In this document: positions 21,371 to 37,223 of the stretch, piece by piece
How the letters are laid out: the number at the start of each line of letters is the position of its first letter
How positions within the stretch are numbered: position 1 is the first letter of the stretch
Assembly: GCA_030390025.1 (NCBI GenBank)
Contig: CM059432.1
Location: 35,590,001 to 35,654,000 of the forward strand
Reading direction: 5' to 3'
DNA length: 64,000 nt
Origin: Squalus acanthias
Taxonomy: Eukaryota
Made by a program: the position numbers and the translations under genes
The notes under the pieces: model-generated
The model's database searches: none
Told to the model about the DNA's origin: nothing
The model's input: only the letters and a program-made list of their open reading frames with translations

Positions 21371-21867
21371 AAAATTGAGAGGTCGCACAACACCAGGTTA
21401 TAGTCCAACAGTTTTATTTGAAATCACAAGCTTTCGGAGCTATCGATTTGCTCCTTCCTCAGGTGAAGTAAATTAGATACAGAATCTCCAAAGCATATAT
21501 AGATGGAAAACAGAGCATGTGTACTTTACAATTGCAGACCAATAAATTAAATCATCCTGACTATCTGCCGAGGTGTGATAAAGTTAATTAAGTCAGCCAG
21601 GAAGGTACCACATCAAAGACATAGCAAGATACAACTGAGACAATGAGGTGTAGTCGCAGGGGTTCTAACGTGTCAAAAGCTGCCGTCTGTATGTAAAACG
21701 AAAAGCTTTAACATTTTTTTACTTTTTTACTGGGAAAATTTTTACTTTTTTACTGGGAATCACATCTGTGAACAAGCTAACGACGACTCGAGTCCGGATC
21801 ACGTCATGTATCGTGACATAAACCCAAGATCCCGATTGAGACCGTCTTCATGAGTGCGGAACTTGGC
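21371..21867 (-). mobile_element. Penelope-like element fragment with hammerhead motif
   Basis: Shares gtcgcacaacaccaggttatagtccaac...gaaatcacaagctttcggagc with 23398 and 37060; flanked by an agtgtttgatgg direct repeat; the right boundary is inferred. Confidence 0.65.
21424..21466 (-). ncRNA. Minimal type I hammerhead ribozyme motif
   Basis: Minus strand UCAC-CUGAGGA-A-GGAGC-(AAAUCGAUA)-GCUCC-GAAA-GC-UU-GUGA. Confidence 0.65.
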
Positions 21868-22228
21868 TAGTGTTTGATGGGACAGTGTAGAGGGAGTTCT
21901 ACTCTGCAGCGTCGCATTCATCAATGTGCTAGCGGTGGGAAGCTTCTCCCACCGGCAGTGCGCCCGTGATTTCTGAAATGGTCGATTGGAGAGGGGGGGG
22001 GCGGGGGGGGGAGAGTCGGCTGCCAGGCGGTTTTGTGCATTTAGAAAATTGTTCCTTACATCTGAGCTGCGCCGTGACAAATCTGGCTGTGCTTTACGTT
22101 GGAAAATCATTCCTGAAATAAGGAAACTGTCCACAAAATTCACAAAGAAGAAGGAATGTATAGAAGCAGCGGAAAGAGCGTTAACCAACCCATTTTATTT
22201 TTCTCTCTTTCTCCTTTCATTCCTGCAG

Positions 22229-22361
22229 TTTCTTTACAGCAAGTGGGACTGGATTCGAGGCCTTCTTCACATCGGATGGGATGCTGGTCGTTGCGGTTTG
22301 CACGAAAAAAGAATACATGACTGTGGCTCTCCCGGAGTTTTCCTTTAATGACTCACTCTGG
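22229..22361 (+). CDS. NBEAL2: NBEAL2 coding exon 4 ([44 protein letters not shown]), 133 nt; ConA-like domain region
   Basis: ttcctgcag acceptor, TGG|gtacgt donor; phase 2 to 0 is consistent with its neighbours. Confidence 0.95.
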
Positions 22362-23397
22362 GTACGTTCCTCTGTGGGACCACTTGTTATGCTGGGTTTT
22401 TACTCTGGGTCATCTCATTGGGGGTGGTTATTTTGTCCTGCTAGTTTTTTGTCCTGGAAGATGTTGACTCCCTTTGCTAGGGTTCAGTTGCATTGGCACC
22501 AGTCTATCTTTTTTTCATATATATATTATTTTTGGGGATGTGGACATTGCTGGAGAGGCTGCATTTATTGTTCATCCCTAGTTTCCCTGGGAAGGTGGTG
22601 ATGGGCTGCCTTCTTGAACCACTAGTAGTGGTTTTGATTCAACTGAGTGTCTTGCTGGGTCACTTCAGAGGGCGGTTAAAAGTCAACCACGTTGGTGTGG
22701 GACTGAAGTCACATGTAGGCCCGACCAGGTAAGGACGGCAAGTTTCCTTCCCGACAGCACATTGTTCAGGTGATTCCCAATGCTGGATCGTAATTGTCGG
22801 CAGGCTTTTTGATTATACGGGCACTGGAGCTGTACTCAACCCTGTCCACAACCAACATCCACGCATGTGTACTTCTGGGTGATGGAGGGGGCTGGATTGA
22901 GATCCGGAGCAGGAACATTTCCTCCCTTATCACAAGAGTGCAGAGACCAGTTGTAGCAGCTACATTGTTACCTTAGTAAACCTAGAGCAGGCCGTGGACC
23001 TGAACCTGGGACCTGCGTTAACTGCGCGGCTGAGAGTCGATGGAGCAGATTTTAGCTTTCAGGTAGGGGCCAAGACGGAACACACCAGCCACCGATCGCT
23101 GCCAGCCGGGAGTGAAGAGGCCAGAGCCGTTTCGAGGTCTGGGCCTCATTTGCATAGAAACAACGAGCCGCCAGCCCCAAACAAACGGTCCCAATGTAGC
23201 TTGCCAGATTCGATTCCGGTGCAGTAACAGGCAGCCCGGAGGCCACTCAGCCGGCAGCGAGATAAGTTCTGGGTAATCATGGTGGGGGGGAGGGGGATTC
23301 CCAGGGTAGCAGCGGCTCAGATTCTTTATTAAGGGGCCCAGGGAAGCACATGCCTTTCTTGGGCTCCTCTGCTGCTGTTGCTGCCAACATTCTTGTT

Positions 23398-23599
23398 AGA
23401 AGTCGCACAACACTAGGTTATAGTCCAACAGTTTTATTTGAAATCACAAGCTTTCGGAGCTGCTGCCCCTTCGTCAGGTGAAGGGGCAGCAGCTCCGAAA
23501 GCTTGTGATTTCAAATAAAACTGTTGGACTATAACCTGGTGTTGTGCGACTTCTCACTTTTGTCCACCCCAGTCCAACACCGGCATCTCCACATCATGG
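23398..23599. mobile_element. Penelope-like short insertion with a 75-bp inverted repeat
   Basis: Arms 23398-23472 and 23480-23554 (1 mismatch); 13-bp TSD caacattcttgtt (23385-23397, 23600-23612). Confidence 0.8.
23444..23481 (-). ncRNA. Minimal type I hammerhead ribozyme motif
   Basis: Minus strand UCAC-CUGACGA-A-GGGGC-(AGCA)-GCUCC-GAAA-GC-UU-GUGA. Confidence 0.65.
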
Positions 23600-35520: not shown

Positions 35521-36246
35521 CTATCTGCCAGTCCTCTGGCACCACACCATTTTCAAACGAATTATTAAATATGTGTACTGATGCCTCTGCTATCTCTTCC
35601 CTAGATTCTTTTTATTTTAAATGCACTTATCTCATTACTAATCTCATCATCCAATGTCATGTCCACCTGCTGTATCTCCCTGGTAAATACTGAAGGAAAA
35701 TAATTATTTAATATTTCTGCCATCTCTCTATCGTTACCAGGTATTATCCTGACTATCCCTTAATGGCCCTATTCCCATCCCAACTTTCCTTTTTTTATTG
35801 ATGTGCCTGTAAAATATTTTGCTATTTTGTTTTATGTTCCTTGATAATTTAATTTCTTAGTTCCCCTTTGCCTTCCTAATTGTTTTTTTGACTTCTCTCC
35901 AAATTGCTTCGTATTCTCTCTTATCATGCACTCCCCTATTGTCTGTGTATTTAATGTATGCCTCTTTCCTTACCCTCAGTTGTTCCCTTATGGCTTTATT
36001 CATCCATGGAGTCTCATTAGTGTTTAGTTTGTTCTTTCATTTTTGCAGAATATATTGTTCCTGCACTCTGTTGAACACCGTTTTAAATGTTTACCATTGC
36101 TGTTCTACATCGTTGTTTGCTAATATTGTTGCCTATTTTATTTTCCCAAGTTCTATTCTCAGCCCCTCAATATCAGCTTTTCTCCAATCTATTACCCTGG
36201 TTTTTGTCATACTTATGTCCTTCTCAATTATCATCTTAAAGTGTAT

Positions 36247-36565
36247 TCACAGAATCACAGAATCCCCACAGTGCAGATAGAGGCCATTTCGGCCCATCGA
36301 GCCTGCACCGACACATATCCCACCCTATCCCCGTAACCCCACGTATTTAATCCCCCTAACACTAAGGGTCAATTTATCATAGCCAAATCAACCTAACCTG
36401 CACATCTTTGGACTGTGGGAGGAAACCGGAGCACCCGGAGGAAACCCACGCAGACACGGCGAGAATGTGCAAACTCCACACAGACAGTCACCCGAGGCCG
36501 GATTCGAACCCGGGTCCCTGGCGCTGTGAGGCAACAGTGCTAACCACTATGCCACCGTGTTGCCC
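36247..36565 (-). mobile_element. Full-length HE1 V-SINE with the standard tail
   Basis: tRNA head, V domain and tail ...gatgggccgaaatggcctctatctgcactgtggggattctgtgattct. Confidence 0.88.
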
Positions 36566-37059
36566 CAATTATATTATTATATTATGGTCACTATTGCCTC
36601 GATGTTCCCCTACTTTTACTTCTCTTATCTGCTCTGGTTCATTCCCCAATACTAGATCCAATATCGAATCCTCCCTTGTTAGGCTTTTTAAATATTGTGT
36701 TAGAAAGGAGTCCTGTGCACATTGTAGGAACTCCATTCCCTTATCCCCTTTACCTACCTCTTCTGTCCAATTAATATCGGGGTAGTTGAACTCCCCCATG
36801 ATTATTATTCTGTGTGTTTTACTCATTTCCCTAATTTGTCTGCATATTTCATCCTCCACCTCCCTTCCACTATTAGGTGGTTTGTAGACAATGCCTATTA
36901 GTGTGATTGATCCTTTATTATCTTTTATCTCTATCGATACGGATTCTATTTTTGTCTTGCTGATCGCTGCGTCACTTTTTTCTACTGCCATTATGTTATC
37001 CCTAATAAGTACAGCTACTCGACCTCCCCTTTTCCCCCTCCCTATCTTTTCTAAATATG

Positions 37060-37223
37060 ATGTGGAGATGCCGGTGTTGGACTGGGGTGGACAAATATGA
37101 GAAGTCGCACAACACCAGGTTATAGTCCAACAGCTTTATTTGAAATCACAAGCTTTCGGAGCGCTGCTCCTTCGTCAGGTAAAGCTGTTGGACTATAACC
37201 CGGTGTTGTGCGACTTCTCACAT
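37060..37223 (-). mobile_element. Penelope-like short insertion with a partial inverted repeat
   Basis: 13-bp TSD ttttctaaatatg (37047-37059, 37224-37236); inverted arm 37181-37220. Confidence 0.8.
37146..37182 (-). ncRNA. Minimal type I hammerhead ribozyme motif
   Basis: Minus strand UUAC-CUGACGA-A-GGAGC-(AGC)-GCUCC-GAAA-GC-UU-GUGA. Confidence 0.62.

Follow-up and report, generated by a model that had tools for sequence, protein, structure and literature searches.

Metazoan Penelope-like elements (PLEs) carry minimal hammerhead ribozymes (min-HHRs) whose monomer is inactive and whose dimer activity is low, and no shark family was found among the min-HHRs in the accessible part of that paper (Cervera and De la Pena 2014, PMC4209133). 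The ribozyme of a lizard PLE cleaves only with its protein; insertion in vitro proceeds without it, and this protein nicks and extends both DNA strands from two reverse transcriptase (RT) start sites (PMC11167929). A linker of the form CX2-5CxxC is a feature of Neptune/Nematis-type PLEs (PMC8557442). Slow intronic ribozymes leave splicing undisturbed (Fong 2009, as cited in the available text of PMC10919898). Our literature search, which covered papers outside subscription, found, largely by title, neither a strand test nor twin priming for Penelope elements.

Three Penelope-like insertions in introns of NBEAL2

The window, meaning the whole 64-kb stretch of DNA analysed, contains NBEAL2 on the plus strand (67% to turtle NBEAL2 and about 53% to NBEAL1 by protein comparison), and three of its introns each hold one motif-bearing copy (Table 1). 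The copy 1 intron (20752-22228) showed GT..AG splicing in RNA contigs from 2 of 4 runs, these being assembled contigs that give no pile-up and from which starts, ends and strand are not readable. The copy 2 (22362-25044) and copy 3 (29936-40944) introns were placed by exon homology (tblastn) and GT/AG ends.

Table 1. Positions of the hammerhead motifs, insertions and neighboring exons in the window
Feature	Position	Strand	Basis or remark
NBEAL2 exon upstream of copy 1	20177..20751 (start approximate)	+	tblastn, 67% NBEAL2, donor GT at 20752
Copy 1 target-site duplication (TSD), 12 nt, inside tandem satellite	left 21357..21368, right 21869-21880	.	repeat comparison
Copy 1, single-arm, 5'-truncated Penelope-like insertion: last 500 nt of 3,136-bp unit, no tail	21369..21868	-	95.6% over 504 nt to L196:6826-7325
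Minimal hammerhead 1, loop II 9 nt	21424..21466	-	predicted cut after CUU, between 21428 and 21427
TATATAT box of copy 1 pseudo-LTR (pLTR), putative promoter aimed antisense to NBEAL2	21495..21501	-	32 nt before initiator-like A at 21469
Final 22 codons and stop of RT-endonuclease ORF in copy 1	21799..21867	-	C-terminus same as ORF end in L196
NBEAL2 exon between copies 1 and 2	22229..22361	+	tblastn, RNA contigs, splice dinucleotides
Copy 2 TSD, 13 nt	left 23385..23397, right 23600-23612	.	repeat comparison
Copy 2 tail-less arm	23398..23483	-	6 nt before core to +83
Minimal hammerhead 2, loop II AGCA	23444..23481	-	predicted buried in ~75-bp hairpin; predicted cut between 23448 and 23447
Copy 2 inversion junction, 4-nt microhomology CTTC/GAAG common to both arms	23480..23483	.	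arm comparison; plus arm loses CUGAC
Copy 2 tail-bearing arm	23480..23598	+	+5 of core to element's ATG
Copy 3 TSD, 13 nt	left 37047..37059, right 37224-37236	.	repeat comparison
Copy 3 tail-bearing arm	37057..37184	-	arm comparison
Minimal hammerhead 3, loop II AGC	37146..37182	-	predicted cut between 37150 and 37149
Copy 3 tail-less inverted arm, starts downstream of ribozyme	37180..37228	+	5-nt overlap with other arm at 37180-37184
NBEAL2 exon closing copy 3 intron	40945..41037 (end approximate)	+	tblastn, splice dinucleotides

An initial annotation had reported three Penelope-borne minimal hammerheads here, and the coordinates and minus strand of all three were confirmed, so that every intact core in the window (3/3) is antisense to NBEAL2. 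In sequence each is a minimal type I hammerhead with a stem I of 4 bp (3/3), CUGANGA, an extra A that lies between 9 and 10.1 in all descriptor matches, a 5-bp stem II and GAAA-GC-U-U. The first stem II pair in this family (family A) is G10.1-C11.1, and the CUGANGA and GAAA core with U16.1-H17 is present in 3/3 motifs with U as H17. Stem I of motif 3 has one U-G pair and overlaps the inversion junction. Of the proposed palindromic stem III the dimer type stands, but not the palindrome AAGCUU. Pairing of AAGCUU would occupy A14 and U17 in standard hammerhead numbering; the active fold would leave only AGCU (A15.1-U16.1) for intermolecular pairing, palindromic at 15.2-16.2 and without a stem III loop. 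The AGCU duplex between two molecules is predicted at only -2.5 kcal/mol. Fold prediction also placed copies 2 and 3 in long hairpins that would lock them on either strand, and 'intact' is therefore true of their sequence and not of their fold.

The loose CUGANGA..GAAA pattern occurred at chance level in the 64-kb window (8 seen vs 6.95 expected by shuffling), and an Rfam scan of the window gave no match to the hammerhead models at E up to 5. Rfam matches to MIR821 and mir-2208 were rejected as the copy 2 palindrome, with scores far below gathering. The full descriptor gave 0 matches on 1.93 Mb of reversed control sequence and 66,427 full cores of family A in the genome (control 0), next to 42,954 of a second family (B) with the palindrome ACGU. 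Cores defined by a 13-mer numbered 83,095 genome-wide (control 272). At this abundance three cores per 64 kb are unremarkable (1.43 expected, P(3 or more)=0.17). Subfamilies differ by compensatory stem I changes (TCAC/GTGA, TTAC/GTAA and AGTT/AACT) and by the palindrome (AGCT vs ACGT).

The Penelope-like origin held up, as copy 1 matches the end of a parent unit at another locus (L196) in which two cores 3,136 bp apart flank an RT ORF. This RT matched Pfam RVT_1 above the cut-off (E=2.1e-9) and shows a DKG motif; the L196 copy has a frameshift near the end. A C-x4-C-x2-C linker separates it from an endonuclease-like C-terminal region that was recognized by eye (VVY...YIGET), with no GIY-YIG family reported by Pfam in either piece. 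The hammerhead motif sits in the pLTR of the element, about 120 nt before the ATG of the ORF. Partial-tandem and inverted pLTRs, a one-sided tail of 30-40 nt and a TSD, which are traits of EN+ PLEs, were all found.

Each copy has a separate TSD (12, 13 and 13 nt). The reading that we favor, at a probability of roughly 0.8, is that a very abundant Penelope-like retrotransposon inserted on three separate occasions into introns of NBEAL2, with the motif likely idle and the shared antisense orientation likely due to chance. A non-LTR retrozyme, which has at least two consecutive tandem units, was rejected on the separate TSDs and on core spacings of 2,015 and 13,701 nt, and a domesticated intronic ribozyme, which would lie on the pre-mRNA strand and be conserved at its site, on the 3/3 antisense orientation and membership in a young repeat family.

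Arm ends and the route of insertion

The start of the element RNA is likely the TATA/initiator, which lies a few bases ahead of stem I. Downstream of it, reverse transcription likely has two starting points, one at the ATG and one some 30-40 nt short of the ATG, and short copies would therefore span only this stretch. The TATA/initiator layout is the same in a rotifer pLTR (available portion of PMC3846280). In the head-to-head copies (2 and 3) both nicked target strands probably prime cDNA, and the cDNA ends would then join at microhomology. The copy 2 microhomology CTTC/GAAG flanks CUGAC, and CUGAC was consequently dropped from one arm.

Among the arms, 25/53 begin 1-20 nt before the core, and the ends of arms cluster at what is likely the TATA/initiator start, immediately ahead of the ribozyme. 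The tail was confined to one arm in 22/24 head-to-head pairs (7 of the 24 from the hand-picked loci L196-L200, which are outside all strand counts), suggesting two separate reverse-transcription starts. Across the 14 pairs whose ends were resolved, the tail arm was shorter than its partner 9 times and longer 5 times; L045 (interrupted), L196 (tandem) and 6 pairs ending beyond the aligned range were left out of this set. The ribozyme cut was rejected as the 5' end of inserted copies, with an upper bound of <1% of copies. Starts at the cut site numbered 240 vs 97 and 150 at the positions 3 nt up and down, a possible small spike, and 40 of 100 listed cut-site starts were preceded by GAA or AAA, as from small core deletions (judged by eye, with the controls not so filtered).

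Head-to-head copies could also arise from one strand that folds back and primes itself rather than from two primings, a possibility that we consider somewhat doubtful. Self-priming on an antisense template is a proposal in the available portion of PMC3846280. Junctions here lie at short palindromes or microhomologies, both arms of a pair belong nearly always to one subfamily (by eye) and the two arms at L196 share 99.3% identity along 2.9 kb, all of which suit such a route. However, folding back would always give the same arm the further upstream reach, whereas the pairs show both orders (9 vs 5). One fold-back route is thus insufficient for all pairs, and a mix of the two routes is possible.

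An improbable extension of the two-priming reading is that a dimeric enzyme holds two RNAs or start sites, that cDNAs from the ATG and from ~35 nt before it run off the RNA start before the hammerhead, and that AGCU mainly clasps the templates rather than serving cutting. The genome, whose two families together have about 110,000 cores, is a fossil record for testing such twin priming, and the arm-end statistics bear on how Penelope elements make inverted ends and on the purpose of the hammerhead.

Strand orientation of intact cores in host genes

The initial annotation had suggested that intact cores are selected against on the pre-mRNA strand and had pointed to copy 2, whose sense arm lacks CUGAC. 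The sense arm indeed begins at GAAG, past CUGAC, but the same exact junction occurs 1,158 times genome-wide in several subfamilies (control 0). A sense arm is present in copy 3 too (37180-37228), not in copy 2 alone.

Outside the window, strand was assessed in 25 gene bodies whose own strand is known (1,933,300 bases), with host strand taken from Pfam or protein matches, among which nested genes may be present; the first 7 kb of one stretch (L001) may be upstream of its gene and holds no core. Intact cores were found 25 times sense and 29 times antisense (p=0.68; 95% interval of the sense share 0.34-0.59), with similar counts in family A (15 vs 16) and family B (10 vs 13). Cores defined by the 13-mer gave 19 sense vs 20 antisense, and the unpaired ones among them 8 vs 9. 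Counted by insertion, 14 single-strand insertions were sense and 18 antisense (p=0.60), and 24/42 insertions hold an intact sense core. Ten of the 42 necessarily have cores on both strands, with the sense core likely sequestered, and therefore hold little information on selection. A head-to-head pair always places one core on the sense strand. The proposed strand bias of intact versus broken arms was absent from the sample (intact/broken 14/13 sense and 16/9 antisense; Fisher p=0.41), and arms starting inside the core were found on both sides of host genes.

Core density in gene bodies was near the genome mean (39 seen vs 43.3 expected), with fewer in compact genes (13 vs 20.9 expected, P=0.046), where the depletion affects both strands. 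Head-to-head pairs hold 22/39 gene-body cores, compared to 60 of the 100 cores at the head of the C1 list (p=0.71). Control repeats in the same stretches, which we take to be CR1, L2-like, RTE-like and SINE sequences, were found sense/antisense at 89/118, 51/42, 25/28 and 11/20. The core counts exclude strong purging of sense cores, and a mild antisense bias, with a sense share of 0.33-0.45 (0.35-0.45 by the 54 cores), is compatible with them. All point estimates are slightly antisense (25/29, 14/18 and broken sense arms 13 vs 9). As intact cores in the other gene stretches of the sample face both ways about equally, the shared orientation in NBEAL2 is likely chance; under the sample's family A class shares, a run of three antisense-only insertions has P=0.048, a figure for an event chosen after the fact.

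A lone core would be unable to form stem III, since the loop is absent and AGCU pairs only with a second copy, and related motifs probably cut slowly or require the protein of the element. Together with the predicted hairpins in copies 2 and 3, this would leave little for selection to act on in pre-mRNA.

Selection might instead act only on rare cutting-capable copies, that is, two unsequestered close same-strand sense cores or whole elements that bring the protein, which we judge unlikely. The dimer requirement (accessible parts of PMC4209133 and PMC6765202) and the lower core number in compact genes agree with it; in the sole close sense tandem (163 nt apart, in an adaptin-family gene) one of the two cores is predicted to be hairpin-locked, and the other close tandem is antisense. 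However, just two close tandems in 1.93 Mb give no power either way, and such selection leaves the window unexplained, where copies 2,015 and 13,701 nt apart would be single on either strand.

General purging of intact cores from the pre-mRNA strand, as an intron carrying one would be cut, is very unlikely: if the true sense share were at most 0.25, 25/54 would have P=0.0006, intact sense cores occur in large (13) and compact (12) genes alike, and CR1 fragments lean antisense equally or more (p=0.051), so a small lean would not be ribozyme-specific. On its side are the 3/3 antisense cores and coreless sense arms of copies 2 and 3 in the window, the small lean in the sample (25/29, 14/18), a sense copy without stem III (L017), an interrupted sense arm (L045) and the reported depletion of tandem retrozymes from Xenopus introns, given without strand breakdown in the available text (10.64898/2026.07.22.740005).

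This first strand test, negative for strong purging, suggests that the ribozymes do almost nothing in the pre-mRNA of host genes, and for NBEAL2 the three copies likely do not matter.

Comparison with known systems

The three motifs are new members of an already known kind of element-borne hammerhead, ordinary Penelope hammerheads. They resemble non-LTR retrozymes, as described in the accessible parts of PMC7229834 and 10.64898/2026.07.22.740005, in being non-coding pLTR-related pieces with type I hammerheads. Retrozymes, however, consist of at least two units in tandem array, whereas the copies here are single or inverted with separate TSDs.

The inverted 5'-truncated pLTRs of EN+ PLEs (available portions of PMC8557442 and PMC3846280) share the head-to-head arms, a tail usually at one end, the TSD and a TATA with initiator-like motif. 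There the tail is ascribed to endonuclease resolution and the inversion to self-priming, whereas the arm lengths observed here are better explained by two primings.

Like the Anolis Poseidon element PAc (Frangieh et al. 2024, PMC11167929), the family has a hammerhead adjoining the ORF start, two likely RT start sites that bound a 30-40 nt tail, and copy ends with no sign of being set by the ribozyme cut. In PAc the ORF begins inside stem II and reverse transcription is initiated 111-118 nt into the ORF, whereas here the ATG follows the core by about 120 nt and the tail ends at the ATG. Compared by linker, the C-x4-C-x2-C of the parent is a Neptune/Nematis mark, not a Poseidon one.

The metazoan min-HHRs, as given in the accessible part of PMC4209133, have the same type I core with an extra base at 9/10.1 and G10.1-C11.1, a palindromic 15.2-16.2 without loop 3, a short helix I and a pLTR location, and occur mostly as single scattered copies with some opposite-strand pairs. 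Helix II is 5 bp here, unlike the 7-8 bp of the Schistosoma families. Copy number (66,427 + 42,954 full cores) is far above that of the other vertebrates reported there, where coelacanth has about 4,000 copies and Xenopus 9,000, counts obtained by different search methods.

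Hammerhead motifs and their host gene

Re-inspection of the sequence confirmed the three hammerhead motifs of the initial annotation on the minus strand (table). In each copy the motif ran in the order stem I strand, CUGANGA, unpaired A, 5-bp stem II, GAAA, GC, U, U and GUGA. Under the standard hammerhead numbering, A15.1-G-C-U16.1 forms the palindrome AGCU and position H17 holds a U, which places the predicted cut after CUU. The proposed stem III palindrome AAGCUU does exist, but in the active fold AGCU would be the pairing unit, as AAGCUU would occupy A14 and U17 (predicted pairing -4.3 kcal/mol for the six bases vs -2.5 kcal/mol for AGCU). 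An Rfam search of the window returned no model matching the motifs at E up to 5 and a loose core pattern occurred there at chance level, while the full descriptor gave 0 matches on 1.93 Mb read backwards as a control. A further 18 nt of the window resembled the family's stem II (16/18, E=0.44), a possible remnant or chance.

The host gene was identified from an exon with 67% identity to turtle NBEAL2 vs about 53% to NBEAL1, and 14 exons mapped in order on the plus strand. With minus-strand motifs and plus-strand exons, all three motifs are antisense to NBEAL2, as first described. The copy 1 intron was skipped with GT..AG ends in contigs of 2 of the 4 runs examined (presumed to be RNA), and the introns of copies 2 and 3 were placed by homology and splice dinucleotides. 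A tandem satellite of about 66 nt surrounds copy 1 and had very deep coverage in the runs examined. CR1-like RT fragments in the whole window were 10 antisense vs 2 sense, a stronger lean than in the other genes examined.

Coordinates of the features (L, stretches extracted from the genome assembly)
Feature	Location	Strand	Detail
Copy 1 motif	window 21424-21466	minus	stem I 5' strand UCAC
Copy 2 motif	window 23444-23481	minus	stem I 5' strand UCAC
Copy 3 motif	window 37146-37182	minus	stem I 5' strand UUAC
NBEAL2 exon	window 20177-20751	plus	
Intron with copy 2	window 22362-25044		
Intron with copy 3	window 29936-40944		
Copy 1 putative promoter	window 21465-21501	antisense	TATA and initiator-like motifs
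Copy 2 arm overlap	window 23480-23483		CTTC/GAAG
Satellite	window 21162-21368, 21869-21905, 51123-51326		
Stem II-like sequence	window 24454-24471		
Near full-length element	L196:1177-7353		
Three-core locus	L157:5965-6393		intronic, adaptin-family gene
Long palindrome	L186:3246-6277		adaptin-family gene
Split head-to-head pair	L045:539-1310		
Second-family cores	L014:1141, L019:9716-9729, and 21 more within L001-L195		

A large Penelope-like family

The three copies were separate insertions, each with its own 12-13 nt target-site duplication, and copies 2 and 3 were head-to-head pairs of short arms. Over 504 nt copy 1 had 95.6% identity to the 3' terminus of an RT-bearing unit of 3,136 bp in L196 (G000:C1), supporting the Penelope-like origin. 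This unit carried one core at each end and an ORF with Pfam RVT_1 (E=2.1e-9), followed by a C-x4-C-x2-C linker and a frameshifted, YIG-like endonuclease region; the Pfam search of the ORF gave no call for the endonuclease region. Such a linker suggests the Neptune/Nematis type (PMC8557442). The short downstream stretch, or tail, ended at the ATG of the ORF, some 120 nt past the core. The near full-length element in L196 comprised three parts: a 141-nt head, the unit itself, and an inverted arm of 2.9 kb with 99.3% identity to the unit. Both ORF copies had a frameshift near the end. The family is young.

Genome-wide searches matched the 13-mer core 83,095 times (control 272) and the full core 66,427 times (control 0), which makes the family huge. 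At this density at least three cores in 64 kb are expected with P=0.17. A second family, with 42,954 full cores (control 0), kept the architecture but used a different sequence (stem I AGTT/AACT, stem II RGGTC/GACCT, palindrome ACGT, in RNA ACGU). Stem I showed compensatory changes between subfamilies, which demonstrate pair variety and not an unbiased rate, as the descriptor requires pairing. Together these changes and the kept architecture of the second family show that structure is maintained in the transposon lineage; this has no bearing on inserted copies 1-3.

Strand of intact cores in gene bodies

From three antisense cores the initial annotation had suggested selection against intact cores on the pre-mRNA strand of introns. 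Genes of known strand were located in the genome by protein and Pfam matches, and 195 stretches (1,933,300 bases, 25 gene bodies) were picked from exon positions without reference to the repeat. Of this total, 1.0 Mb came from five very large genes (catenin-like and CUB-repeat) and 0.93 Mb from 20 compact genes (NBEAL, vinculin/catenin, adaptin, cullin and tolloid-like; names beyond the Pfam family are our presumption). Stretches at G000:C14:49.40-49.57 Mb (catenin-like) and C4:133630848 (CUB-repeat) were excluded; their exon matches had a disrupted order or lay on the wrong strand, possibly from local misassembly.

Intact cores were 25 sense vs 29 antisense (p=0.68; sense share 0.34-0.59), with 13/15 in large and 12/14 in compact genes, and 13-mer cores were 19/20. 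A true sense share of 0.25 would yield 25 of 54 with P=0.0006. Head-to-head pairs add one core per strand, so insertions were counted too: 14 were sense-only, 18 antisense-only and 10 both (p=0.60), with an intact sense core in 24 of 42. When arms of the first family were detected by their downstream part alone, the strands did not differ in intact vs broken cores (intact in 14 of 27 sense and 16 of 25 antisense arms; Fisher p=0.41). Head-to-head pairs held 22/39 cores in gene bodies vs 60/100 among the matches listed on contig C1 (p=0.71), and core density was near the genome mean (39 observed, 43.3 expected). The selection inference is thus not supported.

Every strand estimate leaned slightly antisense, and a mild bias (sense share 0.35-0.45) is compatible with the 25/29 counts. 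CR1 fragments in the same stretches also leaned antisense (89 sense, 118 antisense), so a small lean would not be ribozyme-specific. Going by the class shares within the sample, three consecutive antisense-only insertions of the first family have P=0.048, a value selected post hoc. Palindromic insertions probably sequester their sense cores, which are therefore uninformative on selection. Compact gene bodies (L001-L040, L141-L195) were depleted on both strands (13 cores vs 20.9 expected, P=0.046), which may stem from a general selection against insertions or hairpins, or from variation between regions. No strand test for Penelope elements was found in the literature searched; the supplements of PMC4209133 or 10.64898/2026.07.22.740005 could include a shark family or strand data.

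The sense arm of copy 2 does lack CUGAC, as had been noted. In the natural sequence CTTC stands 6-3 nt ahead of the core and GAAG occupies +5 to +8, and the copy 2 arms overlap in these four bases. The exact junction occurred 1,158 times genome-wide (576 forward, 582 reverse) in several subfamilies, with the core on either strand: the intact core was antisense at L095 and sense at L200, a hand-picked junction in a large minus-strand catenin-like gene whose intron might hold a nested gene. The CUGAC-dropping junction is a recurrent by-product of insertion.

Activity and formation of the copies

The hammerheads of copies 1-3 are likely not active here. Antisense copies are absent from NBEAL2 pre-mRNA and a monomer is unable to close stem III. 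A Schistosoma minimal hammerhead showed no cleavage as a monomer and low cleavage as a dimer (PMC4209133), and the lizard motif required protein for cutting (PMC11167929). Predicted hairpins on either strand reached -145 to -149 kcal/mol for copy 2 and -91 to -94 kcal/mol for copy 3. Slow intronic ribozymes reportedly leave splicing undisturbed (Fong 2009, cited in PMC10919898). Copy 1 keeps its putative promoter, which lies some 700 nt away from the NBEAL2 exon upstream and could start an antisense RNA.

L157 held two sense cores 163 nt apart, separated by about 120 nt of unrelated sequence, and one antisense core, with tails at both ends. The L186 palindrome was near-perfect over 3 kb, its arms, each about 1.5 kb long, abutting at a single point, and would give long double-stranded RNA in pre-mRNA. 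At L045 a later insertion of about 440 nt split the sense arm of a head-to-head pair just past the predicted cut site.

In 22/24 head-to-head pairs one arm reached the ATG and the other stopped about 22-40 nt short of it. Among 14 resolved pairs the tail arm was shorter in 9, including copy 2, and longer in 5, including copy 3. A single strand folding back would set which arm extends further upstream, and the presence of both orders speaks for two primings or for two routes. Among 53 arms from unselected loci and the window, 25 started 1-20 nt ahead of the core, 8 within it and 18 at least 40 nt upstream. Long copies of the main subfamilies had TATATA at 37-40 nt and an initiator-like motif at about 7 nt upstream of the core, in a panel selected by that motif. 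Given these starts near the core and the putative TATA/initiator, many arms resemble run-off products that cover the first 130 nt of the RNA. Copies starting at the predicted cut (240 vs 97 and 150 at neighbouring positions) were <1% of the family, so cleavage is not what sets the ends of inserted copies.

A twin-priming model for Penelope elements was likewise absent from the literature searched. In the lizard element two RT start sites bound the tail and the protein, a predicted dimer, nicks and extends both strands; the arm ends in the shark pairs match these two sites (PMC11167929). The main shark subfamilies share the TATA and initiator-like layout described for a rotifer pseudo-LTR (PMC3846280), unlike the promoter of the Drosophila element, which is TATA-less (PMC2377424).
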